A stretch of 64,000 bases of DNA from Bdellovibrionales bacterium (GTDB lineage Bacteria > Bdellovibrionota > Bdellovibrionia > Bdellovibrionales > UBA1609), in assembly GCA_027317865.1 (NCBI GenBank), contig DAHVQG010000001.1:64001-128000 (forward strand), written 5' to 3'. The stretch's first letter is position 1. Each line of letters starts with the position of its first letter. Position numbers and translations under genes: made by a program. The notes under the pieces are model-generated. The model was not told the DNA's origin. It did no database searches and was given only the letters and a program-made list of their open reading frames with translations. Positions 1 through 28,530 of this stretch are shown here, piece by piece.

Positions 1-651
1 AATAGAAAGACTTTTATGATCGTGATATTCCACTTCAGCTGCCGCCAAAGCGGTTTGCAAAGCCGGGCACCAATAAACCGGTTTGTTACCGCGAAAAACG
101 ACGCCATTTTTGTAAATACGCGCGAGCACACGAATTTCATTTGCTTCGTAGGAGGGTGACATCGTGAGATAAGGATTATCCCACTTTGCAAGTACGCCGA
201 GACGGACGAACTGTTCGCGCTGTTTATTGATCCACTTAGTTGCTTCTTCGCGGCACAAATCGCGGATTTGTTTTTTGGTTAAAGAGTTTTTTTTCTCACC
301 CAGTTGAGATGTGACTTTGAGCTCGATCGGTAGACCGTGGCAATCCCATCCCGGAATAAATTCGGCTTTGTACCCCTGCATGTTGCGAAATTTGATGACG
401 ATATCTTTGAGGACCTTATTCAGTGCCGTGCCGACGTGAACGTTACCATTGGCATAAGGAGGGCCATCCGGCATGACGAACGCGCGGCCGTTGGAATTCT
501 TAGACATGATTTTTTCGTACAGCTTTGACGATCGCCATTTTTCAATAGCAATAGGCTCGGTTTGCGGCAAATTTGCCTTCATCGGAAAGGCCGTTTTCGG
601 CAATATCACAGTATGTTTATAGCCTTCGCTTTTCTGCTCGCCCGAATTCAT
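1..651 (-). CDS. ileS: Isoleucine--tRNA ligase (type 1), N-terminal part; runs off the window edge
   Basis: Manual translation from ATG 651 gives MNSGEQKSEGYKHTVILPKTAFPMKANLP...DGPPYANGNVHVGTALNKVLKD...PGWDCHGLPIE, the IleRS N-terminal and HIGH-region motifs. Absent from the ORF track because it is truncated. Confidence 0.96.
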   Translation of the reverse strand, partial: MNSGEQKSEGYKHTVILPKTAFPMKANLPQTEPIAIEKWRSSKLYEKIMSKNSNGRAFVMPDGPPYANGNVHVGTALNKVLKDIVIKFRNMQGYKAEFIPGWDCHGLPIELKVTSQLGEKKNSLTKKQIRDLCREEATKWINKQREQFVRLGVLAKWDNPYLTMSPSYEANEIRVLARIYKNGVVFRGNKPVYWCPALQTALAAAEVEYHDHKSLSI

Positions 652-1172
652 TTTAACCTCTCGCCCATTTTTTCAATAAATTGCTGTCGCGAGTTTGTCT
701 GCGGGAACATTTCACACACCCGTTCATAGCCGACAGCCACAAGTAAGCGCAGGGCTTCGCGTTCTGAACCTAAATTACATAGCGCTTGAACTTTGCGCAG
801 AACCTCAATTGTACGTATGTCCAACGAATTAAAATTTTCTTGCGCGCTGCTTGGTACAAGCGGTTGTTGCAACGGCGGCGCGATGGGCATTGGTGCACGG
901 GCCATCGGAGCTGGCGCGGTGGGGCTTTCAAATTGCTTCATCCCTTCAGCTAAGGCGCGCAGGTCTTGTTTGAATGCTTCGGAACTTGTCTCGGTCATAG
1001 TTGGCATCGTGCCACCGTTACGGCGCCTTGCTTGCAAATAGAGGGCGACAAGGCTATCTGAATTCGTCGCTAATTCGCGCACGGATTGCGGTTGCGACCG
1101 CATCCACTCGTAGGCTGCGGCGAGCATGTCGCGAGTGTATGCTTGCGGAGGGGGTAGCGGTACTGTTGCCAT
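648..1172 (-). CDS. Hypothetical protein, translationally coupled to ileS
   Basis: 174-aa ORF whose TGA overlaps the ileS ATG (ATGA); helical ends with a Pro-rich linker. Confidence 0.7.
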   Translation of the reverse strand: MATVPLPPPQAYTRDMLAAAYEWMRSQPQSVRELATNSDSLVALYLQARRRNGGTMPTMTETSSEAFKQDLRALAEGMKQFESPTAPAPMARAPMPIAPPLQQPLVPSSAQENFNSLDIRTIEVLRKVQALCNLGSEREALRLLVAVGYERVCEMFPQTNSRQQFIEKMGERLK

Positions 1173-1232: not shown

Positions 1233-2720
1233 TTATTCGGCCGTTTCCGCGTAATCCTTCGCTACAATTCCATATTTTTCAATTTTTCTAAGCAGCGTTT
1301 TTTTCGGGATATTTGCGTGAAGCGCTGTCTGGTTGATGCGCCCCTTGAACATTTTCAAGGCTTTGATAATGAACTCGCGCTCAAACGCCTCCTTATGCTT
1401 GTTAAAATCTAAACTTTCACCTGAAATCGTCACAATTTCATCGCTGCGATTTTCGTTTGTTTCGTTTTCTTGCAGATCGTCCGCGTCTGGTTCGCCGGGT
1501 TCGTCAAAATTGTTGACATTCAGATTTGGCGCATTCAGCTCGACACCTGTTGCAAGCAAAAATGATTCCGGTAGCGATTGAACGGTCAAATGCGTGCCTT
1601 CTTCGAGAATAAATGCGTGTTCAATCACGTTTTCTAGCTCCCGAATGTTGCCCGGCCAGTCGTATTTTTTAAGTAGCGCCAGCGCTTCGGGGGTCGGCCC
1701 GATAATTTTTTTGCCCTGTTTTCTATTGAACTTTTGGATGAAATTTTTAACAAGCTGTTCGATGTCATCGCGCCGCTCAGAGAGTGAGGGTAAAAATATC
1801 GGCATGACATTGAGACGGTAATACAAATCTTCGCGAAACTTACCGTCTTTGTTCATCTGTTCGAGAGGCCGGTTGGTGGCGGCAATGATACGTACATTGG
1901 CTTCAATTTCGCGGTTTGACCCGACCGGGGTAAACACTTTTTCTTGAAGAACGCGCAAAAGTTTAACTTGCATCATAAGCGGCAAGTCACCAACTTCGTC
2001 TAAGAACAAAGTACCGCCTTCGGCATATTGAAATTTTCCGATTTTACGCTGATCAGCTCCCGTGAACGCGCCTTTTTCGTGGCCGAAAAGTTCTGATTCA
2101 AAAAGATTTTCTGGTATCGCCGAGCAGTTCAGTGCCACAAAGGGGCCCTCTTTCTGCGCGGAATTGACGTGAATGGCGCGGGCGACGAGTTCTTTACCGG
2201 TACCCGAAGCGCCTCGAATAAGAACGGGTGTGTCCACTTTCGAAAGCCGATGGATGACGTTAAACACTTTGCGCATTTGTGTATTGGAGCCGATGATTTT
2301 TCGGCCTTGTTCAGCCGAAAGTTGCGGCGCCGAGGCGACAACTTCTGAAACTAAATTGTACGCGGCAAGTGACTTGTTCACGAGATCGACGAGCTCTTCG
2401 CTTTTCACCGGCTTTGAAATGTAATTGTAGGCTCCTTCTTTGACTGCGCAAACCGCATCATTGATATTTGCGTACGCGGTCATGATGAGCACGATCATGG
2501 AGGGGTCAATTTCTTTAATTGCGCTAAGGGTTTTGAGGCCGTTGAGCCGCGGCATATCGACGTCTAAAATCACAAGATTATATGAGCCGGCTTTAATTTT
2601 ATCGAGAGCGTTAATGCCGTCAAACGCCTCGTCGGCGAGAAATTTACCGGTCGACTCCAACGTGTTTTTCACCGAGAGTCTTAAGCCTTGGTCGTCGTCG
2701 CAAACAAGAACTTTGATCAT
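1233..2720 (-). CDS. Sigma54-dependent response regulator (NtrC/AtoC family: REC + AAA+ + Fis HTH)
   Basis: REC domain (CDDD...LDVDMP...KP), Walker [15 protein letters not shown] loop, [17 protein letters not shown]-terminal HTH. Confidence 0.96.
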
Positions 2721-2738: not shown

Positions 2739-4583
2739 TTACAAATCCATCGGGAGTTCGACGGTAAACGTCGAACCCTTCGTCGGTTCACTTTCAACCG
2801 AAATTTGACCGTGATGCAGCTGCACGAAGTAGCGCGCAAGATAAAGGCCGAGACCGTTACCTTTAATCGCGCCGTCGCGAACCGAGCGGCTGCGGTAAAA
2901 TTTCGTAAATAAATTTTCGAGTTCATCGTTGGGAATACCCATCCCCTGATCCGCCACTTGTACCATGAGACGCCCTTCGGTTTCTTCGGTTGTCACAAGT
3001 ACCGAGCTGCCTTCCGGACTGTATTTCACAGCGTTTTCAATAAGATTTGAAAACACTTGGCGCATCAAATCTTCGTCGATTTTAACGCTAAATAACGGTT
3101 CAAATTCGGTGACGATACGAATGCTTTTCTGTTTAGCGTAGTAATCCAGTTTTTGGATGGTTTCGGTGAGCAGCGCGTTTACGTCGCGGGACTTGAGCTG
3201 CAATTTAATATCCTTACTTTCGATACGGCCAAGATTGAGGATCGAGCCGACAAATTGGGTGAGCTCTTGCGACGATTCGCTAATCGTTTTTATGGCGTCT
3301 TGCTGTTGTGCGGTTAGGTGTGATGAATCGCGAAGTGCGATTTCGGTCATGCCTTGAATCCTCGCTAGAGGAGTTTTCAGGTCATGAGACATCAGTCGTA
3401 AAAAATTAGATTTGAGTTCCTCAACTTGTACAAGAAGGTTGTTGCGCTGAAAATATTCCCACGAACGGCGATTTTCGACAATCAACCGGTAAGGGATAAA
3501 AAAGTAATAACAAATAAAAACTGTAAGAAGCGGGTGTGAAACATCGATCCAAATGCCGGCGGCGGCGAACAATAACCAAGCGACAAAGAGAAACCCCGTC
3601 AAAGTAAGAACTAAAATATAAAGTCCGCGCACCGGTCGCAACGCAAGAACGATAAACACGGTGATAATGGCGATGAGGCACGTGATCATGAGATTAAGCC
3701 ATTTCGGAACTTGCACAGGAGCGTCGTTTAAAATTAGCGTATCAATCATGTTGGCTTGCAGTTCAGCTGTCGACATGGCCAGCTGATCGCGCGAATATGG
3801 GGTCATCGCGTAATCGTTTTCATTGGCCTTGTTGTCGATGCCGACGATGACAATTTTACCGCGAAATTTTTTAGGTGAAATATAACCTTGTTCGACGTCA
3901 ACAAAACTGTAATTCGGGTAGGTGCCGGTCGGTCGAAAGTTAATGTATGCTTGCTGAGTTCGTTTAAACGTGAAAACTCCACGATAATCTTTGACGCTCT
4001 TTTTGCCATTGATTTCGTCGGCAAGTTGCATCTGCGCAAGCGGCTTACCTTCGAAAGTTAAAATTACCCGCCGAGAAACGCCGTCTCGGGCAAAATTATA
4101 AACGTCAGCAGTTGTGGGGCCCGATTTGACGTCGAGATCTTGCAGCGGCGGGAGCAAACGAAATTCATCTTCGACGCCTTTGTCGGGGAGCGCGTTAGTT
4201 TTAAGAATGAGCAGATTGGCCCGTTTGGCCGCGCTCGCGAGCCTTTGAAGTTGCCCGTAAGATCCCATGATGTTGTTGAAATTATTCGTGTATAGAACGC
4301 GACGGGGCTTCGTTTGCGCAAGCCAGTTAAACAGTTTAACAAAATCATTCGCGTCGGGGAGCCGTTGCAACTCCTCTTGAGTTTTTTGATCGACGGTAAC
4401 CAACACGATGTTACCGGATGTGGCCGGGGCCGGCCGCGTTCTCACGCGCATGTCGTAAAAGAAACCTTCGAAATAGCTCAATCGAAACTGAAAAATAAGT
4501 ACGGCAAGGGCAATCGCCAGCCCGACTCTCAGGGCGGCAAATAGCCAACGCCGTTTTGATTTTTTATTTTTCTCAGTTTTCAT
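2739..4583 (-). CDS. CHASE2-domain membrane sensor histidine kinase
   Basis: N-terminal TM, extracytoplasmic CHASE2-like domain (IVLVTVD, DGVSRR, GKIVIVG, ELQANMIDTL), three TMs, H-box SHDLKTPL, N-box NLIENAVKYS, DQGMGI, GNGLGL. Confidence 0.92.
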   Translation of the reverse strand: MKTEKNKKSKRRWLFAALRVGLAIALAVLIFQFRLSYFEGFFYDMRVRTRPAPATSGNIVLVTVDQKTQEELQRLPDANDFVKLFNWLAQTKPRRVLYTNNFNNIMGSYGQLQRLASAAKRANLLILKTNALPDKGVEDEFRLLPPLQDLDVKSGPTTADVYNFARDGVSRRVILTFEGKPLAQMQLADEINGKKSVKDYRGVFTFKRTQQAYINFRPTGTYPNYSFVDVEQGYISPKKFRGKIVIVGIDNKANENDYAMTPYSRDQLAMSTAELQANMIDTLILNDAPVQVPKWLNLMITCLIAIITVFIVLALRPVRGLYILVLTLTGFLFVAWLLFAAAGIWIDVSHPLLTVFICYYFFIPYRLIVENRRSWEYFQRNNLLVQVEELKSNFLRLMSHDLKTPLARIQGMTEIALRDSSHLTAQQQDAIKTISESSQELTQFVGSILNLGRIESKDIKLQLKSRDVNALLTETIQKLDYYAKQKSIRIVTEFEPLFSVKIDEDLMRQVFSNLIENAVKYSPEGSSVLVTTEETEGRLMVQVADQGMGIPNDELENLFTKFYRSRSVRDGAIKGNGLGLYLARYFVQLHHGQISVESEPTKGSTFTVELPMDL

Positions 4584-4616: not shown

Positions 4617-4736
4617 TTAAACCCAACTGCGTTCGGGGCAACCATTGGCGGCGCTTTTGCCTTCACGGGCAAGAGTCTCGCGTGTTTTATTGCCCGAAAC
4701 ATTCTTTGGTTTGCGGACTTTTTTAATGTGTTTCAT
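4617..4736 (-). CDS. Putative RiPP precursor peptide, 39 aa (MKHIKKVRKPKNVSGNKTRETLAREGKSAANGCPERSWV)
   Basis: ATG at 4736 is preceded by AAAAGGAG-TTTAC and overlaps the radical SAM 3' end. Basic leader and single-Cys core; the MKHIK start resembles SCIFF/ranthipeptide leaders. Confidence 0.7.
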   Translation of the reverse strand: MKHIKKVRKPKNVSGNKTRETLAREGKSAANGCPERSWV

Positions 4737-6057
4737 GTAAACTCCTTTTGTAGTACCAAATCGCGAGCGCCGCGATCTGGCGGGTTCGATGACAAAAATT
4801 TGGATCTTTTTCGTGACGGTTACCTGAAAATGATTTGTGTACAGCCATGCAACCCCCGCCGCATAAATGGCGTGCCCAGCAAGTTTGGCAGTGATTGAGT
4901 TCGATGAGCGTTGAGCCATAATGTTCAAGGTGCGGTTTTGACAAATCGGTGAGATGGCCGATTTTTTCGGTTTCGTCGTTCATAAACCAATTGCAAACAT
5001 AAAGGTCAGCGCGAGTATCGGATTGAATAAGCGATTTGCCCGCTCCGCAGTAATTATGCTGGCGCGTTTGACTCTCCAATCTCGTCAGCGGCCGTCTAAA
5101 CTGTTTGATTTTTACAAGCCCTGATAGCCCGTCGCGCGCGTAGAGCTTCGCGGCCGTTTTTTTCAATTCTTCAAGATAGCGGTTCGAAATTTCAAAGGCT
5201 GTTTCGGAGCGGTCGTTGTTTGAAAAGTTAAAATTATAGCGGTCAAAATCAAGATGAAGCGATTCGAGATAATCAAACGCCCGCTCGACTCGCGTATTGT
5301 GGGCGCCAAAAACGCAATTGACCGCGAGCGTACCAAGTTGATTCCGTACGGCACGTAGTTGTTCGAGTCCGCGAACGGTGAGCTCAGTTGAGCCATAACC
5401 GTTTTTTGCCTTTACCGGGCGGGTGAAGTCGTTTACTTCAGGTTCACCGTCAATGCTAACTGTGACGTGAAATCGATACCGCGCTAACATCTCCGCCGAT
5501 TCGCGTGTAATGAGGGTCCCATTGGTATTAATGGCAAAATGCAAATCAATGTCTCTTCCGCTTACCATCAATTGAGCGTAGCGGCACAGCGACTCAATGA
5601 CGTGCGGATAGAGCAGAGGTTCGCCTCCACAAAACTCAATTTCAAACGATTTGCTATCTTTGAGATTGGACAAAAAATACGAGATTTGTTGTTCGGCCTT
5701 ATGCGTGTCGATCTTTGTGATTTTAGAACCGTAAGTTCCGGCAGTTTCGTTCTTGCCATCAAAGTCGACGGCTGCGCAATAGGTACATTTTAAATTGCAT
5801 ATTTGCGCCACGTTAAGAAGCAGCGTACTTATTTCTCGCGACGAAGCGATGTCGGTTGTATCCGGAGAATTTTCTTTGTGCCACACCTCGAGTTCAGCCC
5901 TGATTTCGCTGTCTTTTTGAAGCGTGATTTCGTTTTCAAGCGCCTGCCAAACTTTTTCACTCAGTTCGGCAACTTCTAAGTTGCGCGCATGAAAACCCAA
6001 TACTTCGCCGTTTTCAGCGCGTGTTGCGAGAATGTCTTTGTAGCGGCGAAATTGCAT
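4723..6057 (-). CDS. Radical SAM/SPASM peptide maturase (SCIFF/QhpD/anSME-like) with probable N-terminal RRE
   Basis: CNLKCTYC motif, FCGGEPLL, TNGTL, VSIDG; SPASM CGAG...LYVC and CQTCWARHLCGGGC...C. Start moved to ATG 6057 (GAGGG RBS). Confidence 0.93.
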   Translation of the reverse strand: MQFRRYKDILATRAENGEVLGFHARNLEVAELSEKVWQALENEITLQKDSEIRAELEVWHKENSPDTTDIASSREISTLLLNVAQICNLKCTYCAAVDFDGKNETAGTYGSKITKIDTHKAEQQISYFLSNLKDSKSFEIEFCGGEPLLYPHVIESLCRYAQLMVSGRDIDLHFAINTNGTLITRESAEMLARYRFHVTVSIDGEPEVNDFTRPVKAKNGYGSTELTVRGLEQLRAVRNQLGTLAVNCVFGAHNTRVERAFDYLESLHLDFDRYNFNFSNNDRSETAFEISNRYLEELKKTAAKLYARDGLSGLVKIKQFRRPLTRLESQTRQHNYCGAGKSLIQSDTRADLYVCNWFMNDETEKIGHLTDLSKPHLEHYGSTLIELNHCQTCWARHLCGGGCMAVHKSFSGNRHEKDPNFCHRTRQIAALAIWYYKRSLHETH

Positions 6058-6236
6058 TTTCTTACCCTCTACGTGCAAAAAACAGCGTTGAAAATTCAAG
6101 GTGGTGTCAAACCCGTGTATCTAAGAGCAAATCACTTGCCAGGCTTAAACCCGCAAAATAAGGGGCTTAGGCGACAATAAGTGTCACTTTGACACCAGAT
6201 TGTCAATCCACAGGAGTAACTGCAGAGCACAGGCCT

Positions 6237-7130
6237 TTAAAGTTTTTGATAAATGAGTACGAATTCAGATGTCGTGGTAGGAGCGTCAACCGGCACTGTT
6301 TTGATGTCAAAGGTCAACGTGTCGTTGTTGGGTTGCCGCGCAGTTAGCGTTGTATTTTCAAGTGTTGTACCGTTTAGCCAAACGAAATGGAGGTGACTGT
6401 TTTGGTTGGCCGGAGGTTTCGCAACAGGCGCAGTGGTTTGCGGCATTGGCCCCACAAAATCGGCGCTGGCGGCTGAAATTTGAGGCTGTGGTTTTTGAGC
6501 TTTCGGTTTCGACATGAGCCACGCGAGTGGGTTAAATGCCGTTGGCGTTACCGTTGAAAGATCGTACTCACCCTCAGGAGTTCGAAAATCAGACATGGGT
6601 ATAAGACGGTCGGGTTTGAGATAAAAGTTATAAACGACTTGTGCATCGGGTATGGCGGCGTTTTTAATAAATCCTTTGTTACCTTCAAACAGTCGCGGAA
6701 TAACAAGGCTTGAAGTCATGTTTTCTTCGGCAATATTGATGGGACTCGTATACTCAGTCACGACACTTTCGGGTTCACTGATTTCGGGGAGTGTATCTGT
6801 AAAGAGCACCTCAACGCTGTCGGTAATGTCTGTGACATGAGTCAAAATTTTAGTGAGCGCATATTTGCCGCTACCAAATGTTTTTTTAAAATTGAGATTT
6901 TTCCAAGCAAGCGCCGGCGAGTTGCCCGCCGCTTTTTTAATTTCGCGCTGAATGTCTTTGTGGCTCGCAAAACCACTGTTATCTACATTGCCGATGAGAG
7001 AGAGATCTTCAACATTGATATCGTCGGCTTTAGCCTTGGCGGTCAATAAAATGTTGGTTGCGCCAATAATGGCCAGCGCTGTAATAGCCGTGGCAATCAG
7101 ATTCGAATTTCGTTGTGTAAATCGCTTCAT
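6237..7130 (-). CDS. Secreted hypothetical protein
   Basis: Signal peptide ending AKA-DD; 297 aa; no family recognised. Confidence 0.75.
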   Translation of the reverse strand: MKRFTQRNSNLIATAITALAIIGATNILLTAKAKADDINVEDLSLIGNVDNSGFASHKDIQREIKKAAGNSPALAWKNLNFKKTFGSGKYALTKILTHVTDITDSVEVLFTDTLPEISEPESVVTEYTSPINIAEENMTSSLVIPRLFEGNKGFIKNAAIPDAQVVYNFYLKPDRLIPMSDFRTPEGEYDLSTVTPTAFNPLAWLMSKPKAQKPQPQISAASADFVGPMPQTTAPVAKPPANQNSHLHFVWLNGTTLENTTLTARQPNNDTLTFDIKTVPVDAPTTTSEFVLIYQKL

Positions 7131-7309: not shown

Positions 7310-9667
7310 CTACTTTATCCGAATAAGTGTTGTGTTTTGGGCGGTTTCAAACGGGTAAGCGGTCGGAACTTGTTTTCTAAGTTGCGCAGCCGTGTAAGTG
7401 AACTTTTCGACTCCTTTGGGCCACGCAAAATCGTCTTTCGGAAAGCGCTTGCAGTAGTCGCGCATGAAACTGAGCCACAATGGCAAGGCTCCGCTTGCTC
7501 CGGTAAGCATTGAAGGAGTGTTATCGTCGTAGCCTGTCCACGTAACAGTGAGCACGTGTGGAGTAAACCCAACGAACCACGCGTCGCGCGTGTCGCTTGT
7601 TGTTCCGGTTTTACCGGCCGCTGGCCAATCGAAACCTTCGAGGGTCGCGCGCCTGGCCGTTCCGGTCAACAAAGTTTGTTTCATCATGCCGATTAAAACA
7701 GCCACTGTTTGCGGCGAAAACGCACGCACGTCTTTGGGGTGAGCCACATAAATTTCTTGCCCGTCCGGGTCCGTCACGCGCAGGACATACTGCAGCGGCC
7801 GCATGAGTCCGAAGCGGGCAACGGTAAGCGCGCCAGTTGCGACTTCCCACGGGTAAAGCTCAAATGCTCCAAGAGTGAGAGACGGTAGGGGTTCTATATT
7901 TGACTGCGTAATGCCGGCGCGACGGGCGACGTCGACAATGTTGGTTAACCCAACCTGTATGCCCATCCTTGCCGTTGCATCGTTGAGGGAATCTTTGAGC
8001 GCATAAAAAAGCGGCACCTCGCCATGATAAGTTCGCGTATAGTCGCGTGGCGACCACTCTTGACCTTGATAATGGTAAACAAACGGTTCGTCTTTTATAA
8101 GTGAAGTTGCTGTATAAGGTTTGCCGTTGGGTTGATTGCCTTCGAGCGCGGCTAAATAGTCAAATATCTTCATGACGGAGCCGACTTGCCTATGGGCATC
8201 GAGCACGCGGTTATATTGCGTATTTTCAAAATGGCGGCCACCGACCAGCGCTAAAACATCGCCGGTGTCGACATCGACTGAAATTAACGAAGCTTCTAAT
8301 TTTTCGCCTTTGGCCTTGAGTTTTGTAATGTACGGGTCATCCTGCTCAAGTTTGCGCACGTGCTCGAGCACCTTTTTTTCGGCGCTTTCTTGGGCGCCCA
8401 CGTCGAGTGAAGTGTAAACGTTAAGTCCGTTTTCAGTGCTGATATTCAGTCGTTTTAGCTCGCGAAAAATCGCCTGCGTATAGTAGGGTGCCGGGTCATG
8501 AAGCGATTCTTCGGACTGCGTTGGGAGCGGGGTCGAGTTCGCCCAATCCGCATCTTGCTGCGAAATCATTTTGTCAGATACCATAGCCTTGAGAACAAGC
8601 GACCGCCGCTCGCGCGCATGATTAGGGTGCGTGAACGGATCAAAGTAACCTGGGTTATTAATGATTGCCGCAAGCAGGGCACATTTTGGCAAATCGATCG
8701 AGTTCAATTTTTCGTTGAAATAGTGGCGGCTGGCCGCGCCGAATCCGATCACTTGAAACGGTCCGCTTTGGCCCATGTAAATGACGTTGAGATAATTTTC
8801 GAGGATTTGATCTTTGCGTAAACTCGCGTCGAGTAGCATCGCCATAACGACTTCAGTGATTTTACGGCGCAGGGTTTTTTGCGGAGTTAAAAAATAATTT
8901 TTCACAAGTTGTTGGGTAATGGTGCTGCCGCCTTCCGCATAGCGACCTTTTAAAACGTCGTTTACCAATGCACGAAGAATGCCCTTAAAGCTGATCCCCG
9001 GGTTTTCAAGAAAAGTACGGTCTTCTATCGCTGTGACGGCCTCCGAGCAATCGAGCGGGACATCGCCCATATCTATGATTTGCCGCAAAATAGGTTTGCC
9101 GTTGTAGAACTGCGCAAAAAGTTCCGGTTCCAGTTGAACCGATTTGACTTCCGTAAATGGTTCACCGCCGAAAATGTGTGAGATTGTCCAACTCCCGTCG
9201 CCTTGCTGGCCCTGAATCGGCGCAGACGGCGCTTCTCCGTGAGAAAACGCAATCAAAACGGGCGTGCCGGCTTCTGACGGTTTAATTGTGTCGTCGCCTT
9301 CGCGAAATTCCACGCATGCATCCAGACCGCTCATAAAATCGTCGTTTAAAATTTTGGCGCATTGATCGTGGTTGAGCATGATGAAATCTTTCGGGTAAAG
9401 CGACTCCGAACCAAACCGTTCACGGTAGTGCCGTTGCAGAAGGGATTTTCGAACCGTGCTTGCTGAAATGATTTCGTGAGTAAATAAAACTTCGCCGCGC
9501 GCGTAGAGGTTGACCGGCGGGCGAAACCAACCGTGGGCGATTCGTTTTTTCATTTCGATGTCGAGGCGCCACGCCCAAATCGCGACGGCAACAGCGCCAA
9601 GAAAAGTAAAAACAAATATTCGGCCGAGCCACTTTCGCCATTTATGCGACTTCATCTTGCTTGACAT
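7310..9667 (-). CDS. mrcB: Class A penicillin-binding protein 1B (transglycosylase/transpeptidase)
   Basis: EDRTF, GGSTITQQLVKN, RKITE, YLN glycosyltransferase motifs; SVMK, SLN, KTGT transpeptidase motifs; UB2H-like insert. Confidence 0.92.
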   Translation of the reverse strand: MSSKMKSHKWRKWLGRIFVFTFLGAVAVAIWAWRLDIEMKKRIAHGWFRPPVNLYARGEVLFTHEIISASTVRKSLLQRHYRERFGSESLYPKDFIMLNHDQCAKILNDDFMSGLDACVEFREGDDTIKPSEAGTPVLIAFSHGEAPSAPIQGQQGDGSWTISHIFGGEPFTEVKSVQLEPELFAQFYNGKPILRQIIDMGDVPLDCSEAVTAIEDRTFLENPGISFKGILRALVNDVLKGRYAEGGSTITQQLVKNYFLTPQKTLRRKITEVVMAMLLDASLRKDQILENYLNVIYMGQSGPFQVIGFGAASRHYFNEKLNSIDLPKCALLAAIINNPGYFDPFTHPNHARERRSLVLKAMVSDKMISQQDADWANSTPLPTQSEESLHDPAPYYTQAIFRELKRLNISTENGLNVYTSLDVGAQESAEKKVLEHVRKLEQDDPYITKLKAKGEKLEASLISVDVDTGDVLALVGGRHFENTQYNRVLDAHRQVGSVMKIFDYLAALEGNQPNGKPYTATSLIKDEPFVYHYQGQEWSPRDYTRTYHGEVPLFYALKDSLNDATARMGIQVGLTNIVDVARRAGITQSNIEPLPSLTLGAFELYPWEVATGALTVARFGLMRPLQYVLRVTDPDGQEIYVAHPKDVRAFSPQTVAVLIGMMKQTLLTGTARRATLEGFDWPAAGKTGTTSDTRDAWFVGFTPHVLTVTWTGYDDNTPSMLTGASGALPLWLSFMRDYCKRFPKDDFAWPKGVEKFTYTAAQLRKQVPTAYPFETAQNTTLIRIK

Positions 9668-9695
9668 TATGGGGCATCGGGAATTTAGTCAAAGA

Positions 9696-9974
9696 ATGAA
9701 GGTCAGCGAAAAATTCATCGAGCGCCTCGTACATCAAGTGTTTAAAGACCTTAAAGCGCAGGACATTATTACGTTTAAAGATAAGGAAGACCGCGTGTTT
9801 CGTCGCGCGTGCGACATTCTTGTTCAAGAGTATCAACGCGAATCCGATCTTGACCATGAGGTCAACCGCATGATGGATGATCTCGAACGTCAAAACCCGG
9901 GCCAATTTCAACGCTACAAAATGTTCCCGCTCCTGAAGAAAAAGTTAGCTAAAGAAAAGGGAATTGTTCTGTGA
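9696..9974 (+). CDS. DUF507-like protein
   Basis: MKVSEKFIERLVHQV...KKKLAKEKGIVL; start moved to ATG 9696. Confidence 0.75.
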   Translation: MKVSEKFIERLVHQVFKDLKAQDIITFKDKEDRVFRRACDILVQEYQRESDLDHEVNRMMDDLERQNPGQFQRYKMFPLLKKKLAKEKGIVL

Positions 9975-10243
9975 CTTTGTCCGAAGAACGGCAAACTCAT
10001 TTTGCACACCTCATCATCGACGGCATCTGGAATGACGATTTAGTTGATTACAGCGATGATGATGTGGCAATTAAAGTGGCCAAGCGCGCGATCGCAAAAT
10101 TTGTCGCTGAAATGGAAGAAATTGACAAAAAAGCGAAAGCCATGGTGGCCTCACTTAAGCGTGGAGTTCCCGAGGGTTCACCGGAATGGGACGTTCTCTA
10201 CGCAAAATATTTAGAGGAAGAACTTCGCCGTCGCGGCAACTAA
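9971..10243 (+). CDS. DUF507-like protein
   Basis: SLKRGVPEGSPEWDVLYAKYLEEEL motif; overlaps the upstream paralog. Confidence 0.8.
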   Translation: MTLSEERQTHFAHLIIDGIWNDDLVDYSDDDVAIKVAKRAIAKFVAEMEEIDKKAKAMVASLKRGVPEGSPEWDVLYAKYLEEELRRRGN

Positions 10244-20840: not shown

Positions 20841-20857
20841 TTGGCATTTGAGTTGCT
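20841..20857 (+). promoter_or_regulatory. Putative sigma54 promoter of the flagellar operon
   Basis: TTGGCATTTGAGTTGCT. Confidence 0.75.
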
Positions 20858-20926
20858 CCTGAAATGGTCAGGGGAGTGTGTGAGTTGTTTAACCGACTCC
20901 ACGGCTACTCAAAAAGGGGGCGAATC

Positions 20927-21457
20927 GTGGCAGAACAAAAAGCACCGGAACCGGCACCAGCGGCGGCACCAGCACCATCCGGTGGAAAGCCAACCTTATT
21001 TATCATTTTGGCCGTTGTGAACATGTTAGTTGTGGCCGCCGTCGGAGCAATGATTTTTCTCAACCGAAAACGGCAAGCCTCGCAAACTACAATTCAGCAG
21101 GTAATAAACGCTGAAGCCACGCAAGAAAAGAAAGAACAAGAAAATCCCGAATTCATCGGTAAACTTGTTCCCCTTGATACATTCCTCGTTAATCTCGCCG
21201 GTAGTCGAGGACAAAAGCTTGTAAAAGTTGATATGGAGCTTGAAGTCAGCAATACCGCCGTTGAAAAAGAAATCAACACGATCATGCCGAAAATTCGCGA
21301 CATTATAATCATAATTCTGTCTTCTAAAACGTATGCGCAAATTGCCACAGCTCAAGGCAAAGACGAACTGCGCAACGAAATTCGCGATAAAGTGAATTTG
21401 TTTTTAACAAAGGGCCGAATCAAACGCGTATATTTTACGGAATTTATTTATAACTAA
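20927..21457 (+). CDS. fliL: Flagellar basal body protein FliL
   Basis: TM, FLVNLAG, IRDIIIIILSSK, VYFTEF; GTG start with AGGGGG RBS. Confidence 0.93.
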   Translation: MAEQKAPEPAPAAAPAPSGGKPTLFIILAVVNMLVVAAVGAMIFLNRKRQASQTTIQQVINAEATQEKKEQENPEFIGKLVPLDTFLVNLAGSRGQKLVKVDMELEVSNTAVEKEINTIMPKIRDIIIIILSSKTYAQIATAQGKDELRNEIRDKVNLFLTKGRIKRVYFTEFIYN

Positions 21458-21477
21458 AAGAAGGGTTAAGAGACGGT

Positions 21478-22488
21478 ATGAGCCAAGTTCTGTCACAAAG
21501 TGAAGTCGACGCGCTCCTCGCCGCAGTATCAGAGGGTGAAATCGCCGGGCAAGACGCAAACGGTGACGCCGGTGGAGCAGGCGCGGTTGAAAAAAAAGAC
21601 GATCGCATCGTCGTTTCGTATGATTTAACGAGCCAAGATCGGATTATTCGCGGTCGGTTGCCGCAACTTGAAGTTATATACGAAAAGTTTATGCGGTCGT
21701 TCCGCGTCTCGCTCTCGTCAGCTTTAAGAAAAATTGCGACGCTCAACCACGCGAGCACCGATTTTTTGAAATTCGGCGAGTTCATCAACACTCAACCGAT
21801 GCCGACCTGCATGAGCGTGTTGCGTTTCAATGCCCTACGCGGTTCGGTTTTGTTCGTTGTTGAATCAAAACTTGCGTACGCTCTTGTTGACAATTTTTTC
21901 GGCGGTGCCGACCGACCTTACACAAAAACTGAAGGCAAAGACTTTACTGCCATCGAGCTACAAATTATTCGAAAAGTCGTGGATTTGGCTATTGGCGATC
22001 TCGAAGAAGCATGGGCATCAGTCGAAAAAATCGATTGCTCGTTTTTGCGTACCGAAATTAACCCGCAGTTTGTCGGGATTGTTCCCCCGACAGATATAGT
22101 TATCGCTTCGACTTTCGACGTCGAACTTGAAAACGCGAACGGGATTATCACGCTCGTCATCCCCTATTCGACTATTGAGCCGATCAAACAGAAATTGCAG
22201 TCGGGATTTCAAGTTGAATCTGATCAAACAGATAAAAAACTTTGGTCATCCACCTTTATCGAGCAACTTTTAGGAACTGAAGTCGAGGTAAAAGTCGATC
22301 TCGGCGAGACCGAAGTGTCACTCGGGGATCTTTTGGAACTTAAAGCAGGCGATGTGGTTTCGCTCAATCAAGACGCCACGGGCGAGTTCGATGTACAAAT
22401 TGAAGGAGTTCGAAAGTTTAAATCATACTATGGCATTCATCACGGTTCGGTCGCGGTTCAAATCACGCGGCCGGTTGAAAAGGGATGA
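21478..22488 (+). CDS. fliM: Flagellar motor switch protein FliM
   Basis: LSQSEVDALL, EINPQF. Confidence 0.97.
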   Translation: MSQVLSQSEVDALLAAVSEGEIAGQDANGDAGGAGAVEKKDDRIVVSYDLTSQDRIIRGRLPQLEVIYEKFMRSFRVSLSSALRKIATLNHASTDFLKFGEFINTQPMPTCMSVLRFNALRGSVLFVVESKLAYALVDNFFGGADRPYTKTEGKDFTAIELQIIRKVVDLAIGDLEEAWASVEKIDCSFLRTEINPQFVGIVPPTDIVIASTFDVELENANGIITLVIPYSTIEPIKQKLQSGFQVESDQTDKKLWSSTFIEQLLGTEVEVKVDLGETEVSLGDLLELKAGDVVSLNQDATGEFDVQIEGVRKFKSYYGIHHGSVAVQITRPVEKG

Positions 22489-22514
22489 ATTCACGGGAGT
22501 GAAGGGGAAAAATT

Positions 22515-22883
22515 ATGGCAGATGATCAAACCGCAAAAAAACTGGAAGAACCCGCTGAGACGGAAGCGGGGCCTGAAAGCCAACCGATCGAACAGGCGGT
22601 ATCAAACGGCGAGGCAAAGCCCGAGCGAAATCTCGATCTCATTCTTGATATTCCGCTTAAGGTGACGGTCGAGCTCGGGCGAACCAAAATGGTTGTGAAT
22701 GAACTTCTCAATCTCGGGCAAGGCAGCGTCATTGAATTGCAAAAGCTCGCCGGTGAGCCGCTTGAAGTTTTAGTCAACAACAAACTGGTCGCCCGGGGCG
22801 AAGCCGTCGTTGTAAACGAAAAATTCGGCGTTCGATTGACCGACATCATCTCGCAAACAGAGCGAGTGGAGCAATTGGGATGA
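22515..22883 (+). CDS. fliN: Flagellar motor switch protein FliN
   Basis: LDIPLKVTVELGR...GEAVVVNEKFGVR. Confidence 0.97.
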   Translation: MADDQTAKKLEEPAETEAGPESQPIEQAVSNGEAKPERNLDLILDIPLKVTVELGRTKMVVNELLNLGQGSVIELQKLAGEPLEVLVNNKLVARGEAVVVNEKFGVRLTDIISQTERVEQLG

Positions 22884-23509
22884 AATTTCGATGGGGTTTT
22901 GTCGTTTGCGCAATTGTGTTGGGGGTGATTTTAACATTCGCCTTTTCGCCGATTTCGTTGGCCGATACTTCGACAGTTAAATCGACGCCGTTGACAGCAA
23001 CCCCCGTAAAAGTGAAAAAAAATTTACCCGAATCGCAAATTCCAGTTTTCTTATCTAAATCGAATCCGCTGCAAACATCGATTAATCCGTGGGGGCGGTT
23101 ACTTCTTAGTTTTTTGATCATCGGCATTGTCGGCGGTGGAATGATGTTTTTTGCTCGATGGTATTCGGGCAAACACCGTAAAAACGGCGACCCGAATAAA
23201 ATCAGGGTCCTCACGCAACATCATTTGGGCCCCAAAAAAACTTTGGCGATTGTGCGCGTGGCCGGAGAATCCATTTTGATCGGTATAACCGACCACAATA
23301 TATCAATGTTAAAATCGCTGTCGCTTCTTGACGACGAAATACCTAATAATGAAGCGGCAAATAATTTTCAACAGACGCTTGATCACGCGGATGAAAGGCA
23401 AACAGCGGCGACTTTCGACACCCTAAAGGCGCCTGTCGACGATGAACTTCAGCTTTCGCGAATCAAAGATCGTATTTCGACAAAACTTAAAAACTTGAGG
23501 CCGCTGTGA
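22880..23509 (+). CDS. fliO: Flagellar biosynthesis protein FliO
   Basis: [22 protein letters not shown]; lies between fliN and fliP. Confidence 0.9.
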
Positions 23510-24252
23510 AGCGAATCGGTGCGTACTTTATTTTTATTTTCGTGCTCACCTGGTCGCATCATGCCTTTGCTCAATTAACGCTGCCGACTTTCAGTTTAGG
23601 GTACAAAAGCATCCACCAGCCGCAAGATTTTGTGAACAGTATTAAAATTTTATTGGGCCTCACTGTTCTCGCATTGGCGCCGGCCATTCTGATCATGATG
23701 ACGGCATTCACACGTGTCGTCATTGTACTTTCGTTTGTACGGCAGGCGCTCGGTACACAAAATATGCCGCCGAATCAAGTCATTGTGGGGCTTGCGCTTT
23801 TCATCACCTTTTTCATCATGTCGCCCTTCTTACAAAATATAAATACAAGCGCCGTGCAACCCTATTTGAACAAACAGATTACTCAAGAGGTCGCACTTGA
23901 TCGCGCTTTAGTTCCGATTAGACGATTTATGTTTAATGAGACGCGCGATTCCGATCTGGCGCTGTTCGTGCATTTATCCAAAATGCCTCAGCCCAAAACA
24001 AGGGCGGACGTGCCGACGACGGTACTTATACCCGCTTTTATTACCTCCGAACTGAAGACGGCGTTTGAAATCGGATTCATTATTTACCTGCCGTTTCTCA
24101 TTATCGACATGATTGTGGCGAGTGTTCTCATGGCTATGGGGATGATGATGTTGCCGCCGGTGATTATTTCGCTTCCGTTTAAAATCATGCTTTTTGTTTT
24201 GGTTAATGGTTGGGCGTTGATTATCGGTTCTCTGGTGAAAAGTTTTGGATAA
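23506..24252 (+). CDS. fliP: Flagellar export protein FliP
   Basis: [25 protein letters not shown]. Confidence 0.97.
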
Positions 24253-24278
24253 TGGACGTTTGAAAGGAGCTTTTCAGC

Positions 24279-24551
24279 GTGACTCAAGAACTTGTTTTAA
24301 ACCTTGGGCAAGATGCGATTCGGACAACGGCGTTGATTTCGGCTCCCATGCTGATTGCCTCGCTGGTTATCGGCTTGATCATCAGCGTTTTACAAGCGGT
24401 TACGCAAATTAACGAATCGACGCTGACGTTTGTACCAAAAATGGTTGTGATTTTTTTAGTTCTTGTAGTGGCCGGTCCCTGGATGTTGGCTGTGATGTCG
24501 CACTACACGACCGTGCTTTATCACAACATTGCATTTTTCGTGAGGGGTTAA
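24279..24551 (+). CDS. fliQ: Flagellar export protein FliQ
   Basis: QAVTQINESTLTFVPK. Confidence 0.97.
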   Translation: MTQELVLNLGQDAIRTTALISAPMLIASLVIGLIISVLQAVTQINESTLTFVPKMVVIFLVLVVAGPWMLAVMSHYTTVLYHNIAFFVRG

Positions 24552-25331
24552 GTGCCGAACATATATACGTTTAGTATGACTGAAATTTTAGCTTTTGCGC
24601 TTGTTCTTTTGCGCATGGCGGGTTTTGTTTTCGCGATGCCGATTTTTGGCAGCAACATGGTCCCAGCCCCGGTGAAGATTTTGTTCGCTTTGGCATTAAC
24701 GTTTGTGCTGTTTCCACAAATCGGATGGAGAAAACTCAGTTTTGATGTCGATTCAGTTATGATTATTACGCTTGCGGTAAAAGAGCTTTTTGTAGGGCTT
24801 GTCCTCGGGTTTTTGGCACGTATCTTTTTCTTTGCCGTCTCCATGGCGGGTGAAATTATGAGCGTGTCGCTTGGGTTGTCAGAAGCTCAATTGTTTGACA
24901 CAACAATGGGCGGAAGCATGAGTTCTTTTGATCAGTTTTTCGTGATTCTTGCGTCGATTTTTTTCTTGGCGATTAACGGACATGAGCTTTTGATTGCCGG
25001 AATATTTCAATCGTATTCAATTGTGCCGTTAAGCAAAGTCGGCCTCGCACTGACGCCGTTTGGCAGTTTTGGCATCATTATCGAAACCGTGATGTTAATC
25101 GCGGTCAAAATGAGTGCGCCGATTTTGGTGTCGATTTTGTTTTTAAATCTCGCCGTTGCCGTTGTGGGCCGTGCGGTTCCCCAAATCAATATTCTAATTA
25201 CAAGCTTACCGTTGAACATTTTGGCTGGGTTTATTGTTTTGTTTGTGACATTGCCGTTACTTTTGTGGGAGATGCACGGACTTTCGAACCTAACGGCAAT
25301 TGAACTTATTCGCTTTGTGAAGGCGCTTTAA
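24552..25331 (+). CDS. fliR: Flagellar export protein FliR
   Basis: Polytopic membrane protein, GRAVPQINI; operon position. Confidence 0.95.
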   Translation: MPNIYTFSMTEILAFALVLLRMAGFVFAMPIFGSNMVPAPVKILFALALTFVLFPQIGWRKLSFDVDSVMIITLAVKELFVGLVLGFLARIFFFAVSMAGEIMSVSLGLSEAQLFDTTMGGSMSSFDQFFVILASIFFLAINGHELLIAGIFQSYSIVPLSKVGLALTPFGSFGIIIETVMLIAVKMSAPILVSILFLNLAVAVVGRAVPQINILITSLPLNILAGFIVLFVTLPLLLWEMHGLSNLTAIELIRFVKAL

Positions 25332-26398
25332 TGGCTGATTCAGACGATTCTGAAAAGACAGAAGAACCTACGCCGCAGCGGCGCGAAGATTTTAGAAATC
25401 GCGGCCAAGTTGCGCAAACACGCGAACTGGGTTCCGTTTTCGTGCTTTTGTTTTCAACGATCGCATTCTGGCTTCTTGGACGCTATTTTTTGCTGCAAAT
25501 GTATGAAATATACAGACATTCATTTACAGACTTTCTTGTTCAAACCAGCCGTACCGGCGATTGGTACATGGCCGTGCGCTTTGCGGCGATTCACGCCGCG
25601 CTTATAGTAGCGCCACTCACGGGTCTTCTTTGGATCATCAACATCATGGCTTCGGTTATTCAAGTGGGTTTAATCAATAGCGAAGAGGCAATGAAATTTG
25701 ATTTGAACCGGATCGACCCCGTGCAGGGGTTCAAGCGCATTTTCACATTGCGATCACTCGTCGAGGGCGGCAAAGCGATCATTAAAGTTACACTGGTAAG
25801 CGGCATTGTTTACATAATTTTAAAAAACGAGATTAAAACCCTCCCGCGGCTGTCGCTTTTCGGCACATCGCAGTTGCTTGTTTATTGCGGCGAACTGACG
25901 CTGAAACTTTGCGGATGGGTCGGAGTTTTAATGGCGGTACTTGCCGGCCTTGATTACCTATTTCAGCGCTGGGAATTAGAACGTGAAATGCGCATGACCA
26001 AGCAAGAGGTCAAAGAAGAACTCAAATCCCGTGAAGGAGACCCGCTGGTACGCGCACGTGTTCGCAAGCTTCAACGTGAGATCGCTAACCGCCGGATGAT
26101 GGACGCAGTTAAAAAAGCTGATGTCGTTATCACAAACCCGACGCACTTGGCGTGCGCACTTCAGTATTCGAAAGAAATGATCGCGCCCAGGTTAGTTGCT
26201 AAAGGTGCCGATTTTATGGCGGAAAAAATCAAGGCCATTGCAAAAGAAAACAACGTTCCTATTGTAGAAAACAAGCCGCTTGCGCGAACGATCTTTAAAA
26301 CTTTGAAAATCGGTCAGGTTATACCACGGGAGCTTTACGCGGCCGTCGCTGAAGTCCTGTCGTATATTTACCGGCTTAAACGGCAGAGGTTTAGCTAA
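25331..26398 (+). CDS. flhB: Flagellar export protein FlhB
   Basis: EKTEEPT, EGDP, NPTH autocleavage motif. Confidence 0.97.
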   Translation: MADSDDSEKTEEPTPQRREDFRNRGQVAQTRELGSVFVLLFSTIAFWLLGRYFLLQMYEIYRHSFTDFLVQTSRTGDWYMAVRFAAIHAALIVAPLTGLLWIINIMASVIQVGLINSEEAMKFDLNRIDPVQGFKRIFTLRSLVEGGKAIIKVTLVSGIVYIILKNEIKTLPRLSLFGTSQLLVYCGELTLKLCGWVGVLMAVLAGLDYLFQRWELEREMRMTKQEVKEELKSREGDPLVRARVRKLQREIANRRMMDAVKKADVVITNPTHLACALQYSKEMIAPRLVAKGADFMAEKIKAIAKENNVPIVENKPLARTIFKTLKIGQVIPRELYAAVAEVLSYIYRLKRQRFS

Positions 26399-28512
26399 TG
26401 TCTGATGCCCTCTATCTGTTTTTGCGAAAATTCGAACGGATAACCAAAAATACCGATCTGTTCATGGCCGTCGGTCTTGTCGCCATTATGGGCGTCATGC
26501 TAATCCCGATACCGCCGTTTGTGCTCGACATTCTTTTGACAATGTCAATAACCCTTTCAATGCTTATTTTGCTCGTCGCCCTGTATACGCAAAAACCATT
26601 GGATTTTAGCGTGTTCCCGAGTTTACTTTTGGTTGCCACCCTTTTTCGTTTATCATTGAATATCGCTTCGACACGTCTGATTTTGACCGTGGGCAATAAC
26701 GGCCCGCAGGCTGTTGGGCGAGTGATTTCGTCGTTTGGCCAGTTTGTCGTCGGGGATAACTATGTAATCGGATTTGTCGTATTTATAATTCTTGTTGTAA
26801 TTAACTTTGTCGTCATCACCAAAGGTTCGGGACGCGTTGCCGAGGTTGCGGCGCGGTTTACGTTAGATGCCATGCCCGGCAAACAAATGTCGATTGACGC
26901 CGACTTAAACGCGGGCCTCATCAATGAAAAAGAAGCGCGCGCCAGACGCCGCGAAATTGAAATGGAAGCCGACTTTTACGGCTCCATGGATGGTGCCAGC
27001 AAATTTGTTCGTGGCGACGCCATCGCCGGTATTATCATCACTATAATTAATATCATCGGCGGCTTGTGCATCGGCATGTTTCAAAAAGATTTGTCACTGT
27101 CGACGGCTGCCCATTATTACACCACCATGACGATCGGGGATGGTCTTGTGTCGCAGATTCCGGCGCTGATTGTTTCAACGGCTGCCGGTATAGTCGTCAC
27201 GCGAAATTCCAGCGAAAACGACATGAGCCAGGATCTCGCCCGTCAATTGTTTACTCGTTGGAAGGCCGTCGCCATCGCCGCAGGCGTACTTGTCGTTTTG
27301 GGTCTTGTACCGGGTCTACCGACGTTGCCGTTTTTCTTTATAGCGGCGGTTCTTGGAGTGGTGGCATGGGTGGTTCACCGTTATGAGCAAGATGAAGAAG
27401 CAAACAAGAAAAAGGCCGCTGATGCCGAATCGGCCAAGCCGAAAAAAGAAAACATCGAAAGTCTTTTGCCTCTTGATTTGATTGAGCTTGAAGTGGGTTA
27501 CGCTTTGATCAACGTTGTGGAATCTAACCAATCCGGCGATCTTCTCGAGCGGATTGTGAGTATACGAAAACAATTTGCACTTGAGTTCGGAATCGTTGTG
27601 CCGAGCATTCATATACGCGACAATTTGCAGCTCAATCCGGGCGAATATCGCCTACTAATTAAAGGCAATAAAGTCGCGGGCGGCATGCTTCGCGCCGATT
27701 GTCTTCTGGCCATGGACCCTGGCAGTGTGACGTCACATATCGACGGCATTCCAACCAAAGAACCGGCGTTTGGTCTCGACGCCATTTGGATTGGTAAAGC
27801 GATGAAAGAAGAAGCGGAACTTGCCGGTTACACCGTGGTTGACTTGCCGACGGTGATGGCGACGCACATTACAGAAGTTATTCGGACCCACGCCGCTGAG
27901 TTGTTCGGCCGTCAAGAGGCTGATGCTTTAGTTGAAAATTTGAAAAAGCAATATCCGAAAATTGTTGAAGATCTCATCCCCAATATTTTGCCTTTGGGGA
28001 CGGTCGTGCGTGTGCTGCAAAGTTTGCTTCGTGAGCAAGTTTCGATACGCGATTTACGAACCATATTTGAAACTCTGTCGGATGAAGGAGCAAAATCGAA
28101 AGACCCCGAAATTTTGACCGAGCAAGTACGTAGGTCATTGGCGCGGGCGATTACTAGAAAGTACATTTCAGATGACGGCCAAATTCAGGTGATCACCTTG
28201 GGTCGGCATCTTGAAGAGCTGGTTGCCAATTCGCTTTTGCAAACGGAACAGGGTGTGCAGCTTGTTATGGATCCCCATAGTGCGCAGGAAATGATTGAGC
28301 GTATTGCGCAAACAATCGAGTCACATCCTGAAATTGCCGGTCAACCGATCTTACTTACGAGCCCGACGGCGAGACGGCATATTTACAAGCTGACGTCCCG
28401 ATTTATACCCCAGTTGATTGTGCTTGCGCATACGGAATTGACACCCGACGTACACATATCTTCGGTCGGTCAAGTGGATTTGCGGCAAGGTCAAGCTGAG
28501 GTGAGCGCTTAA
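26398..28512 (+). CDS. flhA: Flagellar export protein FlhA
   Basis: RVAEVAARFTLDAMPGKQMSIDAD, MDGASKFVRGDAIAG. Confidence 0.98.
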   Translation: MSDALYLFLRKFERITKNTDLFMAVGLVAIMGVMLIPIPPFVLDILLTMSITLSMLILLVALYTQKPLDFSVFPSLLLVATLFRLSLNIASTRLILTVGNNGPQAVGRVISSFGQFVVGDNYVIGFVVFIILVVINFVVITKGSGRVAEVAARFTLDAMPGKQMSIDADLNAGLINEKEARARRREIEMEADFYGSMDGASKFVRGDAIAGIIITIINIIGGLCIGMFQKDLSLSTAAHYYTTMTIGDGLVSQIPALIVSTAAGIVVTRNSSENDMSQDLARQLFTRWKAVAIAAGVLVVLGLVPGLPTLPFFFIAAVLGVVAWVVHRYEQDEEANKKKAADAESAKPKKENIESLLPLDLIELEVGYALINVVESNQSGDLLERIVSIRKQFALEFGIVVPSIHIRDNLQLNPGEYRLLIKGNKVAGGMLRADCLLAMDPGSVTSHIDGIPTKEPAFGLDAIWIGKAMKEEAELAGYTVVDLPTVMATHITEVIRTHAAELFGRQEADALVENLKKQYPKIVEDLIPNILPLGTVVRVLQSLLREQVSIRDLRTIFETLSDEGAKSKDPEILTEQVRRSLARAITRKYISDDGQIQVITLGRHLEELVANSLLQTEQGVQLVMDPHSAQEMIERIAQTIESHPEIAGQPILLTSPTARRHIYKLTSRFIPQLIVLAHTELTPDVHISSVGQVDLRQGQAEVSA

Positions 28513-28530
28513 AAGTGCGAGGTAAAGACG

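Follow-up and report, generated by a model that had tools for sequence, protein, structure and literature searches.

The window analysed here is a stretch of 64,000 nucleotides (nt) from a Bdellovibrionales bacterium (GenBank assembly GCA_027317865.1, contig DAHVQG010000001.1, positions 64,001 to 128,000). Its minus strand carries, one behind the other, the gene of a radical S-adenosylmethionine (rSAM) enzyme with a SPASM domain, a small open reading frame (ORF) of 39 codons, and the genes of a sensor histidine kinase and of a response regulator. The 39-codon ORF is a real and conserved gene that is paired with the neighbouring rSAM/SPASM enzyme, and the two are referred to below as the cassette. 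The features of the locus, in positions of the window, are as follows.

4723..6057 (-): predicted radical SAM/SPASM peptide maturase of 444 amino acids (aa), from an unnamed Bdellovibrionales clade, with PF04055, CxxxCxxC and seven SPASM cysteines
4617..4736 (-): putative precursor peptide gene, 39 aa, with leader MKHIKKV..., core ...NGCPERSWV and a single cysteine, Cys33
4742..4747 (-): Shine-Dalgarno motif AAGGAG of the peptide gene, read from the sequence
2739..4583 (-): CHASE2-domain sensor histidine kinase, 614 aa, with CHASE2 at 24-306, HisKA and HATPase_c
1233..2720 (-): sigma-54-dependent response regulator, 495 aa, with receiver, AAA+ Sigma54_activat and HTH_8 domains
6126..6141 (-): sigma-54 (-24/-12) promoter TGGCAAGTGATTTGCT, an exact match, about 70 nt before the rSAM start
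6181..6195 (-): perfect palindrome GTGTCAAAGTGACAC; some 40 nt separate it from the sigma-54 promoter downstream

Direct reading of the minus strand gives, for the peptide gene, an AAGGAG motif at 4747-4742, a spacer of 5 nt, an ATG at 4736-4734 and a TAA at 4619-4617. The ORF starts inside the rSAM gene and shares its final 14 nt in a different frame. The 103-aa ORF with a TTG start (4617-4928) that appears in the program-made ORF list corresponds to the same frame, prolonged back into the rSAM gene. Thus, the first-pass annotation, made from the sequence of the window, was right to place a 39-aa ORF with its own AAGGAG and ATG inside the end of the rSAM gene, and right to consider it masked by a longer spurious ORF. 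It had also called the peptide unannotated. This is correct in that no functional name is attached to it; the exact 39-aa sequence is, however, already present, nameless, in a public protein collection, and the public entries for the Bdellovibrio bacteriovorus orthologs read 'hypothetical protein' (Bdt_3279, CAE78161.1, Bb109J_c3116). No NCBIfam family was found at E<=10 for the window peptide or for 18 members of its family, and the peptides match no Pfam model. A sub-threshold Rfam match to Trp_leader lies opposite the peptide gene (4640-4727, plus strand; 27.6 bits against a gathering threshold of 41, E 0.006, at relaxed threshold). It was taken as probably a chance match.

An ORF of 39 codons with a Shine-Dalgarno motif is, alone, within chance, and the evidence for the gene is its conservation. 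Directly 3' of the rSAM ortholog, a like ORF was present at all 11 loci of enzyme-bearing relatives (11 such relatives among 41 searched), in all 9 records that bear the name Bdellovibrionales, Bdellovibrio or Pseudobdellovibrio, and at all 30 loci obtained from 401 sampled genomes of the phylum. These three sets partly share genomes, and two fragments in which the downstream DNA is missing (L012 and L013) were left uncounted. The coupling of the small ORF to the rSAM/SPASM enzyme, proposed in the first-pass annotation, is therefore borne out by every locus counted, and the search for conserved short ORFs beside rSAM homologs in Bdellovibrionota, which it had suggested, recovered the leader and a Cys-Pro core throughout. 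A purine-rich GGAG/GAGG site precedes the peptide start in most orthologous loci. It may be argued that so short an ORF, overlapping the end of the rSAM gene and matching no family model, is a chance frame, and that the enzyme modifies another substrate. This is very improbable, since the ORF is present in every orthologous locus examined and its leader and Cys-Pro core are kept across enzymes that are 37-68% divergent. Moreover, variation in the DNA falls mostly on the third codon position. The leader motif occurs in 14 distinct DNA versions, with 1, 0 and 7 varying columns at codon positions 1, 2 and 3, respectively; for the Bdellovibrio-type core and end (10 distinct DNA versions), the corresponding numbers are 3, 1 and 7, in an analysis that is partly circular in both cases because the rows were selected by motif. 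Finally, the ORF is not seen where the rSAM gene is missing: 18 relatives without the enzyme keep the orthologous kinase gene, and no like ORF was seen in the 510 nt ahead of it in any of them.

The design of the peptide family was further examined by an exhaustive profile search, in which 26 peptides were compared with 1.84 billion representative proteins. It returned 23 matches at E<=0.001, all of 31-47 aa, and the common design was recognised in 20 of the 20 that were inspected among these 23 (P0121 and P0142 were inspected separately). Family peptides are 28-50 aa long and start with (M)KHIKK[VI], often followed by KP and sometimes placed behind a few extra residues. They contain one Cys, 3-11 residues before the C-terminal end. 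In the genus of the window and its nearest kin, the core reads C-P-E-[R/I/L]; outside this group it reads C-x-P-[L/V/I/T/S], and the Bdellovibrio cores are mostly G-C-I-P-V-R or C-I-P-V-K at the extreme C-terminus. The majority of the family has C-x-P-[LVI], as in CIPVR. Two variations on this design were noted. An uncultured Bdellovibrionales carries two tandem precursor genes with the cores GCVPVGIR and ECAPLGAS (L015:5290-5560, plus strand), and the precursor of a Bdellovibrio metagenome-assembled genome has a second Cys (L023:5297-5401, plus strand). Across the family, nothing but the Cys and a Pro at +1 or +2 is constant, and for this reason a fixed Cys-to-X ring cannot be named. From the GCPERSWV core, the first-pass annotation had suggested a Cys-Glu, Cys-Ser or Trp cross-link. 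As chemistry of the family, Cys-Glu, Cys-Ser and Cys-Trp links were rejected because the acceptor residues are not conserved: Glu after Cys-Pro is restricted to the window's genus and its nearest kin, and neither Ser nor Trp is kept.

The enzyme is encoded from an ATG at 6057 to a TAA at 4725-4723. An alternative TTG start at 6099 would give 458 aa; the orthologs begin at the ATG. The CxxxCxxC motif corresponds to C87, C91 and C94, and seven further cysteines (C337, C355, C390, C393, C399, C403, C422) are invariant in 17 orthologs, so that the CxxxCxxC motif and SPASM Cys set noted at first pass are both present. Among NCBIfam models, the best match is the PapB ranthipeptide maturase (NF047865; 176.4 bits, cut-off 340), followed by the nif11-type maturase (170 bits), QhpD (TIGR03906; 143.9 bits, cut-off 453) and the SCIFF maturase (TIGR03974; 129.1 bits, cut-off 425). 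The best NCBIfam matches are thus thioether-forming maturases, in keeping with the thioether-type relationship put forward earlier. In the Protein Data Bank (PDB), the best match is CteB (5WGG; E 3e-25 with the single sequence, 6e-47 with the profile). By alignment, C337, C355 and C403 correspond to the auxiliary cluster I (AC1) ligands C344, C362 and C413 of CteB, and C390, C393, C399 and C422 to its auxiliary cluster II (AC2) ligands C400, C403, C409 and C432 (the CteB ligands are those listed in the accessible part of PMC10177961). This match of three plus four auxiliary-cluster cysteines is the strongest hint of thioether chemistry that the sequence offers. The same partial source describes the binding of the substrate Cys or Sec to the AC1 iron in PapB and Tte1186 (PMC10177961).

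The two downstream genes and the promoter region place the cassette in a regulatory context that is absent from the first-pass annotation. The kinase gene starts 33 nt past the stop codon of the peptide gene, and no terminator-like site was found between the four genes (rSAM, peptide, kinase, regulator). All 18 loci of one set and all 30 of another have the order rSAM-peptide-kinase on one strand. The regulator gene follows that of the kinase in all 8 loci with enough flanking sequence, with L023 as an exception, where it is upstream and inverted. Downstream of the regulator gene, the window encodes a 174-aa protein without family match (648-1172, minus strand), possibly a fifth gene of the operon; behind the regulator, its first 50-80 residues are also conserved in L016, L017, L018, L020 and L023. 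On the other side, between PBP1 and the cassette, lies the gene of a 297-aa protein without Pfam or NCBIfam match (6237-7130, minus strand), with a hydrophobic N-terminus by eye; its occurrence at this position is confined to the window's genus (L002-L004).

The sigma-54 pattern occurs 3 times in the window, where 1.35 occurrences are expected. Because this count is close to expectation, it is the position of the element, not the number of matches, that constitutes the evidence for a promoter. In 16 of 17 and 30 of 30 loci, the rSAM start is preceded at a distance of 28-84 nt by an equivalent -24/-12 element; for the looser pattern, about 0.03 chance matches per locus are expected if equal base frequencies are assumed, and the related loci are not independent of each other. 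The genome encodes 15 sigma-54 activators. Its rpoN gene (G000 contig C22:3-878, minus strand; locus L158) is severed by a contig end and its DNA-binding domain is unassembled, which is why a search with PF04552 alone finds no sigma-54 in this genome. As for the palindrome GTGTCAAAGTGACAC, it is probably a binding site for the sigma-54 activator. Upstream of the promoter, the window's genus and family show palindromes of the TGTCA-N3-TGACA type, in loci with the cassette (L001-L005) and likewise in loci without it (G002, G018, G016, G014, G020). Outside the window's family, no common palindrome was seen upstream of the promoter in 30 loci, and none in Bdellovibrio-type loci. In relatives that lack the cassette, including the congener G002, the palindrome and a similar promoter stand directly ahead of the kinase gene. 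The enzyme-peptide pair thus has the place of an accessory module between promoter and kinase.

A scheme can be proposed in which a precursor and its maturase, borne by a sigma-54 operon together with a kinase and a regulator, give rise to a single thioether; as a whole, we lean towards it with moderate confidence. The maturase, the precursor, the CHASE2 kinase and the sigma-54 regulator would be transcribed together from the one sigma-54 promoter, and the regulator would probably activate the promoter of its own operon. The conserved (K)HIKK[VI] leader would be recognised by the enzyme, and the thiolate of the single Cys would bind the open iron site of auxiliary cluster I. The 5'-deoxyadenosyl radical would then take a hydrogen from a nearby residue of the C-P or C-x-P core, so that one intramolecular thioether would result (-2 Da), in ranthipeptide fashion. 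The most likely product is a single-thioether, ranthipeptide-like peptide that would be controlled by the two-component system and would possibly be its signal.

Several observations weigh against this proposal. The enzyme is below the curated cut-off for every NCBIfam family. A quick maximum-likelihood tree of 80 homologs groups the Bdellovibrionota sequences in a single clade (SH-aLRT 99) on a long stem of its own (1.54), distinct both from the SCIFF maturases of Bacillota and from a large QhpD-like clade; homologs with at least 37% identity are from Bdellovibrionales only, the next best being at about 27%. Such a long-branched clade, below all thioether-family cut-offs, may have a different chemistry. 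TigE (8VPO), which has the same 7-Cys layout, makes a cyclopropane. On the side of the substrate, no acceptor residue is conserved, the Cys-Pro spacing is variable, and many members end with C-[IV]-P-[VI]-R, that is, with the C-x-P-x-R formylglycine motif. The operon contains no gene for a protease or an exporter. Finally, the kinase/regulator pair is kept in 18 of 29 cassette-free relatives, including G002, and its persistence there indicates that it is independent of the peptide.

The recognition of the leader is also concerned. Some 75 residues precede the radical SAM core, and from their predicted strands and helices the first-pass annotation had proposed a RiPP (peptide made on the ribosome and modified after translation) recognition element (RRE). 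Three sequence tests did not detect it: Pfam PqqD (PF05402) gave no match at E<=10 in 17 N-termini, a PDB search with the N-terminal profile gave none either, and hhalign against 11 SCIFF-maturase N-termini returned a probability of 1.3%. The region before the radical-SAM cysteines is, moreover, shorter by about 17 residues when set against CteB and by 32 when set against TigE. Only the full-length profile spans the RRE region of TigE, its positions 13-61 aligning with the first strands and helix of the 8VPO RRE (residues 3-85 according to the accessible part of PMC10878394), and a TigE stretch of 29 residues has no counterpart in the window enzyme. An Atlas feature search with residues 1-80 yielded nameless clusters and, as a weak lead, one cluster at 0.88 with PqqD in 11% of its members. 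For comparison, the CteB leader forms a strand placed against the RRE (PMC8326336, in the part accessible).

The C-x-P-x-R endings raise the possibility that the enzyme works like an anaerobic sulfatase-maturing enzyme (anSME), its product being, instead of a cross-link, a short peptide aldehyde (about -18 Da) in which the single Cys has been oxidised to C-alpha-formylglycine. anSME too is an rSAM/SPASM enzyme, acting on the Cys of C-x-P-x-R, and most Bdellovibrio-type precursors end with C-I-P-V-R, C-I-P-I-R or C-V-P-V-R. The window enzyme aligns with anSME over the whole core (PDB 4K37, E 2e-20), and the non-conservation of a thioether acceptor also speaks for such a reaction. However, the anSME model scores lower than those of PapB, QhpD and the SCIFF maturase (TIGR03942; 98.2 bits, cut-off 349), many members lack the Arg (CIPLG, CIPSG, CIPTN, CPEL), and in the window's clade the Pro is at +1, not at +2. 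Cluster ligation differs as well: anSME presumably uses eight cluster cysteines and the Asp of 'PCDF' as a base, whereas the present enzyme family keeps seven auxiliary-cluster cysteines, as in CteB, and its residue after C355 is N, A, P or Q. Unlike anSME, the enzyme is extended at its N-terminus, and its substrate bears a leader. In addition, the genome has no matching sulfatase, none of its three PF00884 proteins showing C/S-x-P/A-x-R at the expected active-site position. Because the Arg and the position of the Pro are not kept, the anSME score is lower, there are seven Cys and no Asp, the substrate bears a leader and no sulfatase carries the motif, formylglycine formation is rated below the thioether; we regard it as quite unlikely, and as the main chemical rival.

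The distinct, long-branched position of the clade, together with conservation limited to Cys and Pro, would also be consistent with a real enzyme-peptide pair having another chemistry: a C-C or C-O cross-link, an epimerisation, or a reaction that turns the Cys-Pro unit into a small molecule, cofactor-like or a signal, which proteolysis would set free. The 7-Cys layout shared with TigE, a methylcyclopropylglycine synthase, goes in the same direction. It should, however, be noted that the invariant residue of the family is a Cys, that the closest families by score all employ a Cys thiol as cross-link donor, and that the open AC1 site of TigE is, in the partial account at hand, occupied by the Tyr of a GYW motif. 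Such a different chemistry is conceivable, though rather unlikely, and the formation of a single thioether is retained as the preferred reading.

Four SCIFF precursors were found beside Bacillota homologs of the enzyme; they start with MKHIK[T/I] and continue to GC[G/K]EC, in agreement with the MKHIK start and GC-x-E-type motif ascribed to SCIFF precursors in the first-pass annotation (they were retrieved with a regular expression among 70 loci, 9 other Bacillota loci being covered by the regular expression alone). The window peptide, which begins with MKHIKKV, has the MKHIK leader of SCIFF. With the SCIFF systems (CteA/CteB, Tte1186a/Tte1186), the cassette thus has in common the MKHIK N-terminus of the precursor and the three plus four auxiliary-cluster cysteine ligands, with CteB as the best solved-structure match; the window core GCPE resembles the SCIFF GCGE, and both are two-gene units without protease or exporter. 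Because the N-terminus is shared and CteB is the nearest structure, descent from or kinship with SCIFF systems is suggested. The differences are nevertheless marked. The SCIFF precursor model (TIGR03973) describes peptides of about 45 aa with six Cys; the window peptide has one Cys, and the core comprises 4-12 residues in its family. The SCIFF precursor is upstream of the maturase in the 4 loci seen, whereas the Bdellovibrionales precursor is downstream. SCIFF hosts are Clostridia, the present hosts are aerobic predatory Bdellovibrionales, and, unlike SCIFF, the present pair is embedded in a sigma-54/two-component operon. A quorum-sensing role was proposed for SCIFF (PMC8326336, in the part accessible).

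Among ranthipeptide systems, PapB/PapA (freyrasin) gives the best NCBIfam match (176 bits), yet below the cut-off. The CxxxCxxC motif and, by alignment, the three AC1 and four AC2 cysteines of ranthipeptide maturases are found in the window enzyme, and a ranthipeptide with a single thioether exists in NxxcA (PMC8326336, same part). PapB requires C-x3-D and NxxcB requires N-x-x-C; an Asp at +4 and an Asn at -3 are not conserved in the present peptides. QhpD, which is an rSAM/SPASM enzyme too, forms Cys-Asp/Glu thioethers, its homologs form a separate large clade, and its substrate, which we take to be a protein subunit, is not a leader-bearing peptide.

The association with a kinase and a regulator recalls agrBDCA-type operons, which comprise a maturase, a precursor, a sensor histidine kinase and a response regulator. 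The gene order is alike, and so is the place, ahead of the operon, of a promoter for the regulator's sigma factor. However, there is no sequence relation to AgrB, AgrD, AgrC or AgrA. The present system uses a radical SAM enzyme, a CHASE2 kinase and a sigma-54-dependent regulator. By analogy with agr, it can be imagined that the modified peptide leaves the cell by export and serves the CHASE2 kinase as its cognate signal, making a self-activating, agr-like autoinducer loop in predatory bacteria; we consider this possible but doubtful. The identity ratio between sensor and kinase domains of the CHASE2 kinase is 0.68 in 7 cassette-positive and 0.61 in 17 cassette-negative relatives, a comparison confounded by distance. 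At matched distance, no difference in sensor-versus-kinase divergence was found, which is uninformative on the coupling to a ligand.

In the 401 sampled genomes of the phylum, the enzyme was found at E<=1e-60 in 62. The cassette is close to universal in the sampled Bdellovibrio family (f10), in which 52 of 53 genomes are positive, including 26 of 26 in its largest genus and 14 of 14 in another. In the window's own family, the enzyme is present in 5 of 26 genomes. The other positive families are f12 (2/2), f4 (1/1) and f23 (1/14, a partial match at a contig end), and the enzyme was found in none of the remaining families tallied in this sample. The laboratory strains of B. bacteriovorus carry the cassette.

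Two further features of the window were recorded. A second exact sigma-54-type element, TGGCATTTGAGTTGCT (20842-20857, plus strand), lies 7 nt ahead of a flagellar operon (20864-31705, plus strand) that encodes FliL, FliM, FliO, FliP, a FliR-type protein, FlhB and FlhA, as well as an FlhF-type SRP GTPase, a MinD/ParA-type ATPase and a FliA-type sigma factor. The flagellar export genes of the window may be sigma-54-dependent. Besides, two adjacent ORFs (9510-9974 and 9971-10243, plus strand) that overlap by 4 nt match DUF507 at positions 1-93 and 95-181, respectively; either the two-gene form is natural or a single gene has been split.

Searches of the literature returned no paper on this system, although survey supplements may list such loci. 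In the accessible parts of two surveys of data sets that contain Bdellovibrionota, antiSMASH 'ranthipeptide' clusters were counted (PMC13635244, PMC13642348). The pair seems to be of the SCIFF/ranthipeptide kind and forms part of a sigma-54 two-component operon; its product is apparently undescribed. Since the cassette is nearly universal in the Bdellovibrio family and present in laboratory strains of B. bacteriovorus, the model bacterial predator holds a minimal and genetically tractable radical-SAM peptide system. With a core that goes down to four residues after the Cys, the family offers a simple substrate for studying the choice of the acceptor carbon by CteB/PapB-type enzymes. Moreover, the cassette has a fixed place, with a sigma-54 promoter on one side and the CHASE2 kinase and its regulator on the other, which makes the peptide either an output or an input of their signalling. 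To our knowledge, no ligand of a CHASE2 domain is known. If the peptide were indeed the signal of the kinase, it would be the first defined CHASE2 ligand and a cell-cell signal in Bdellovibrio.

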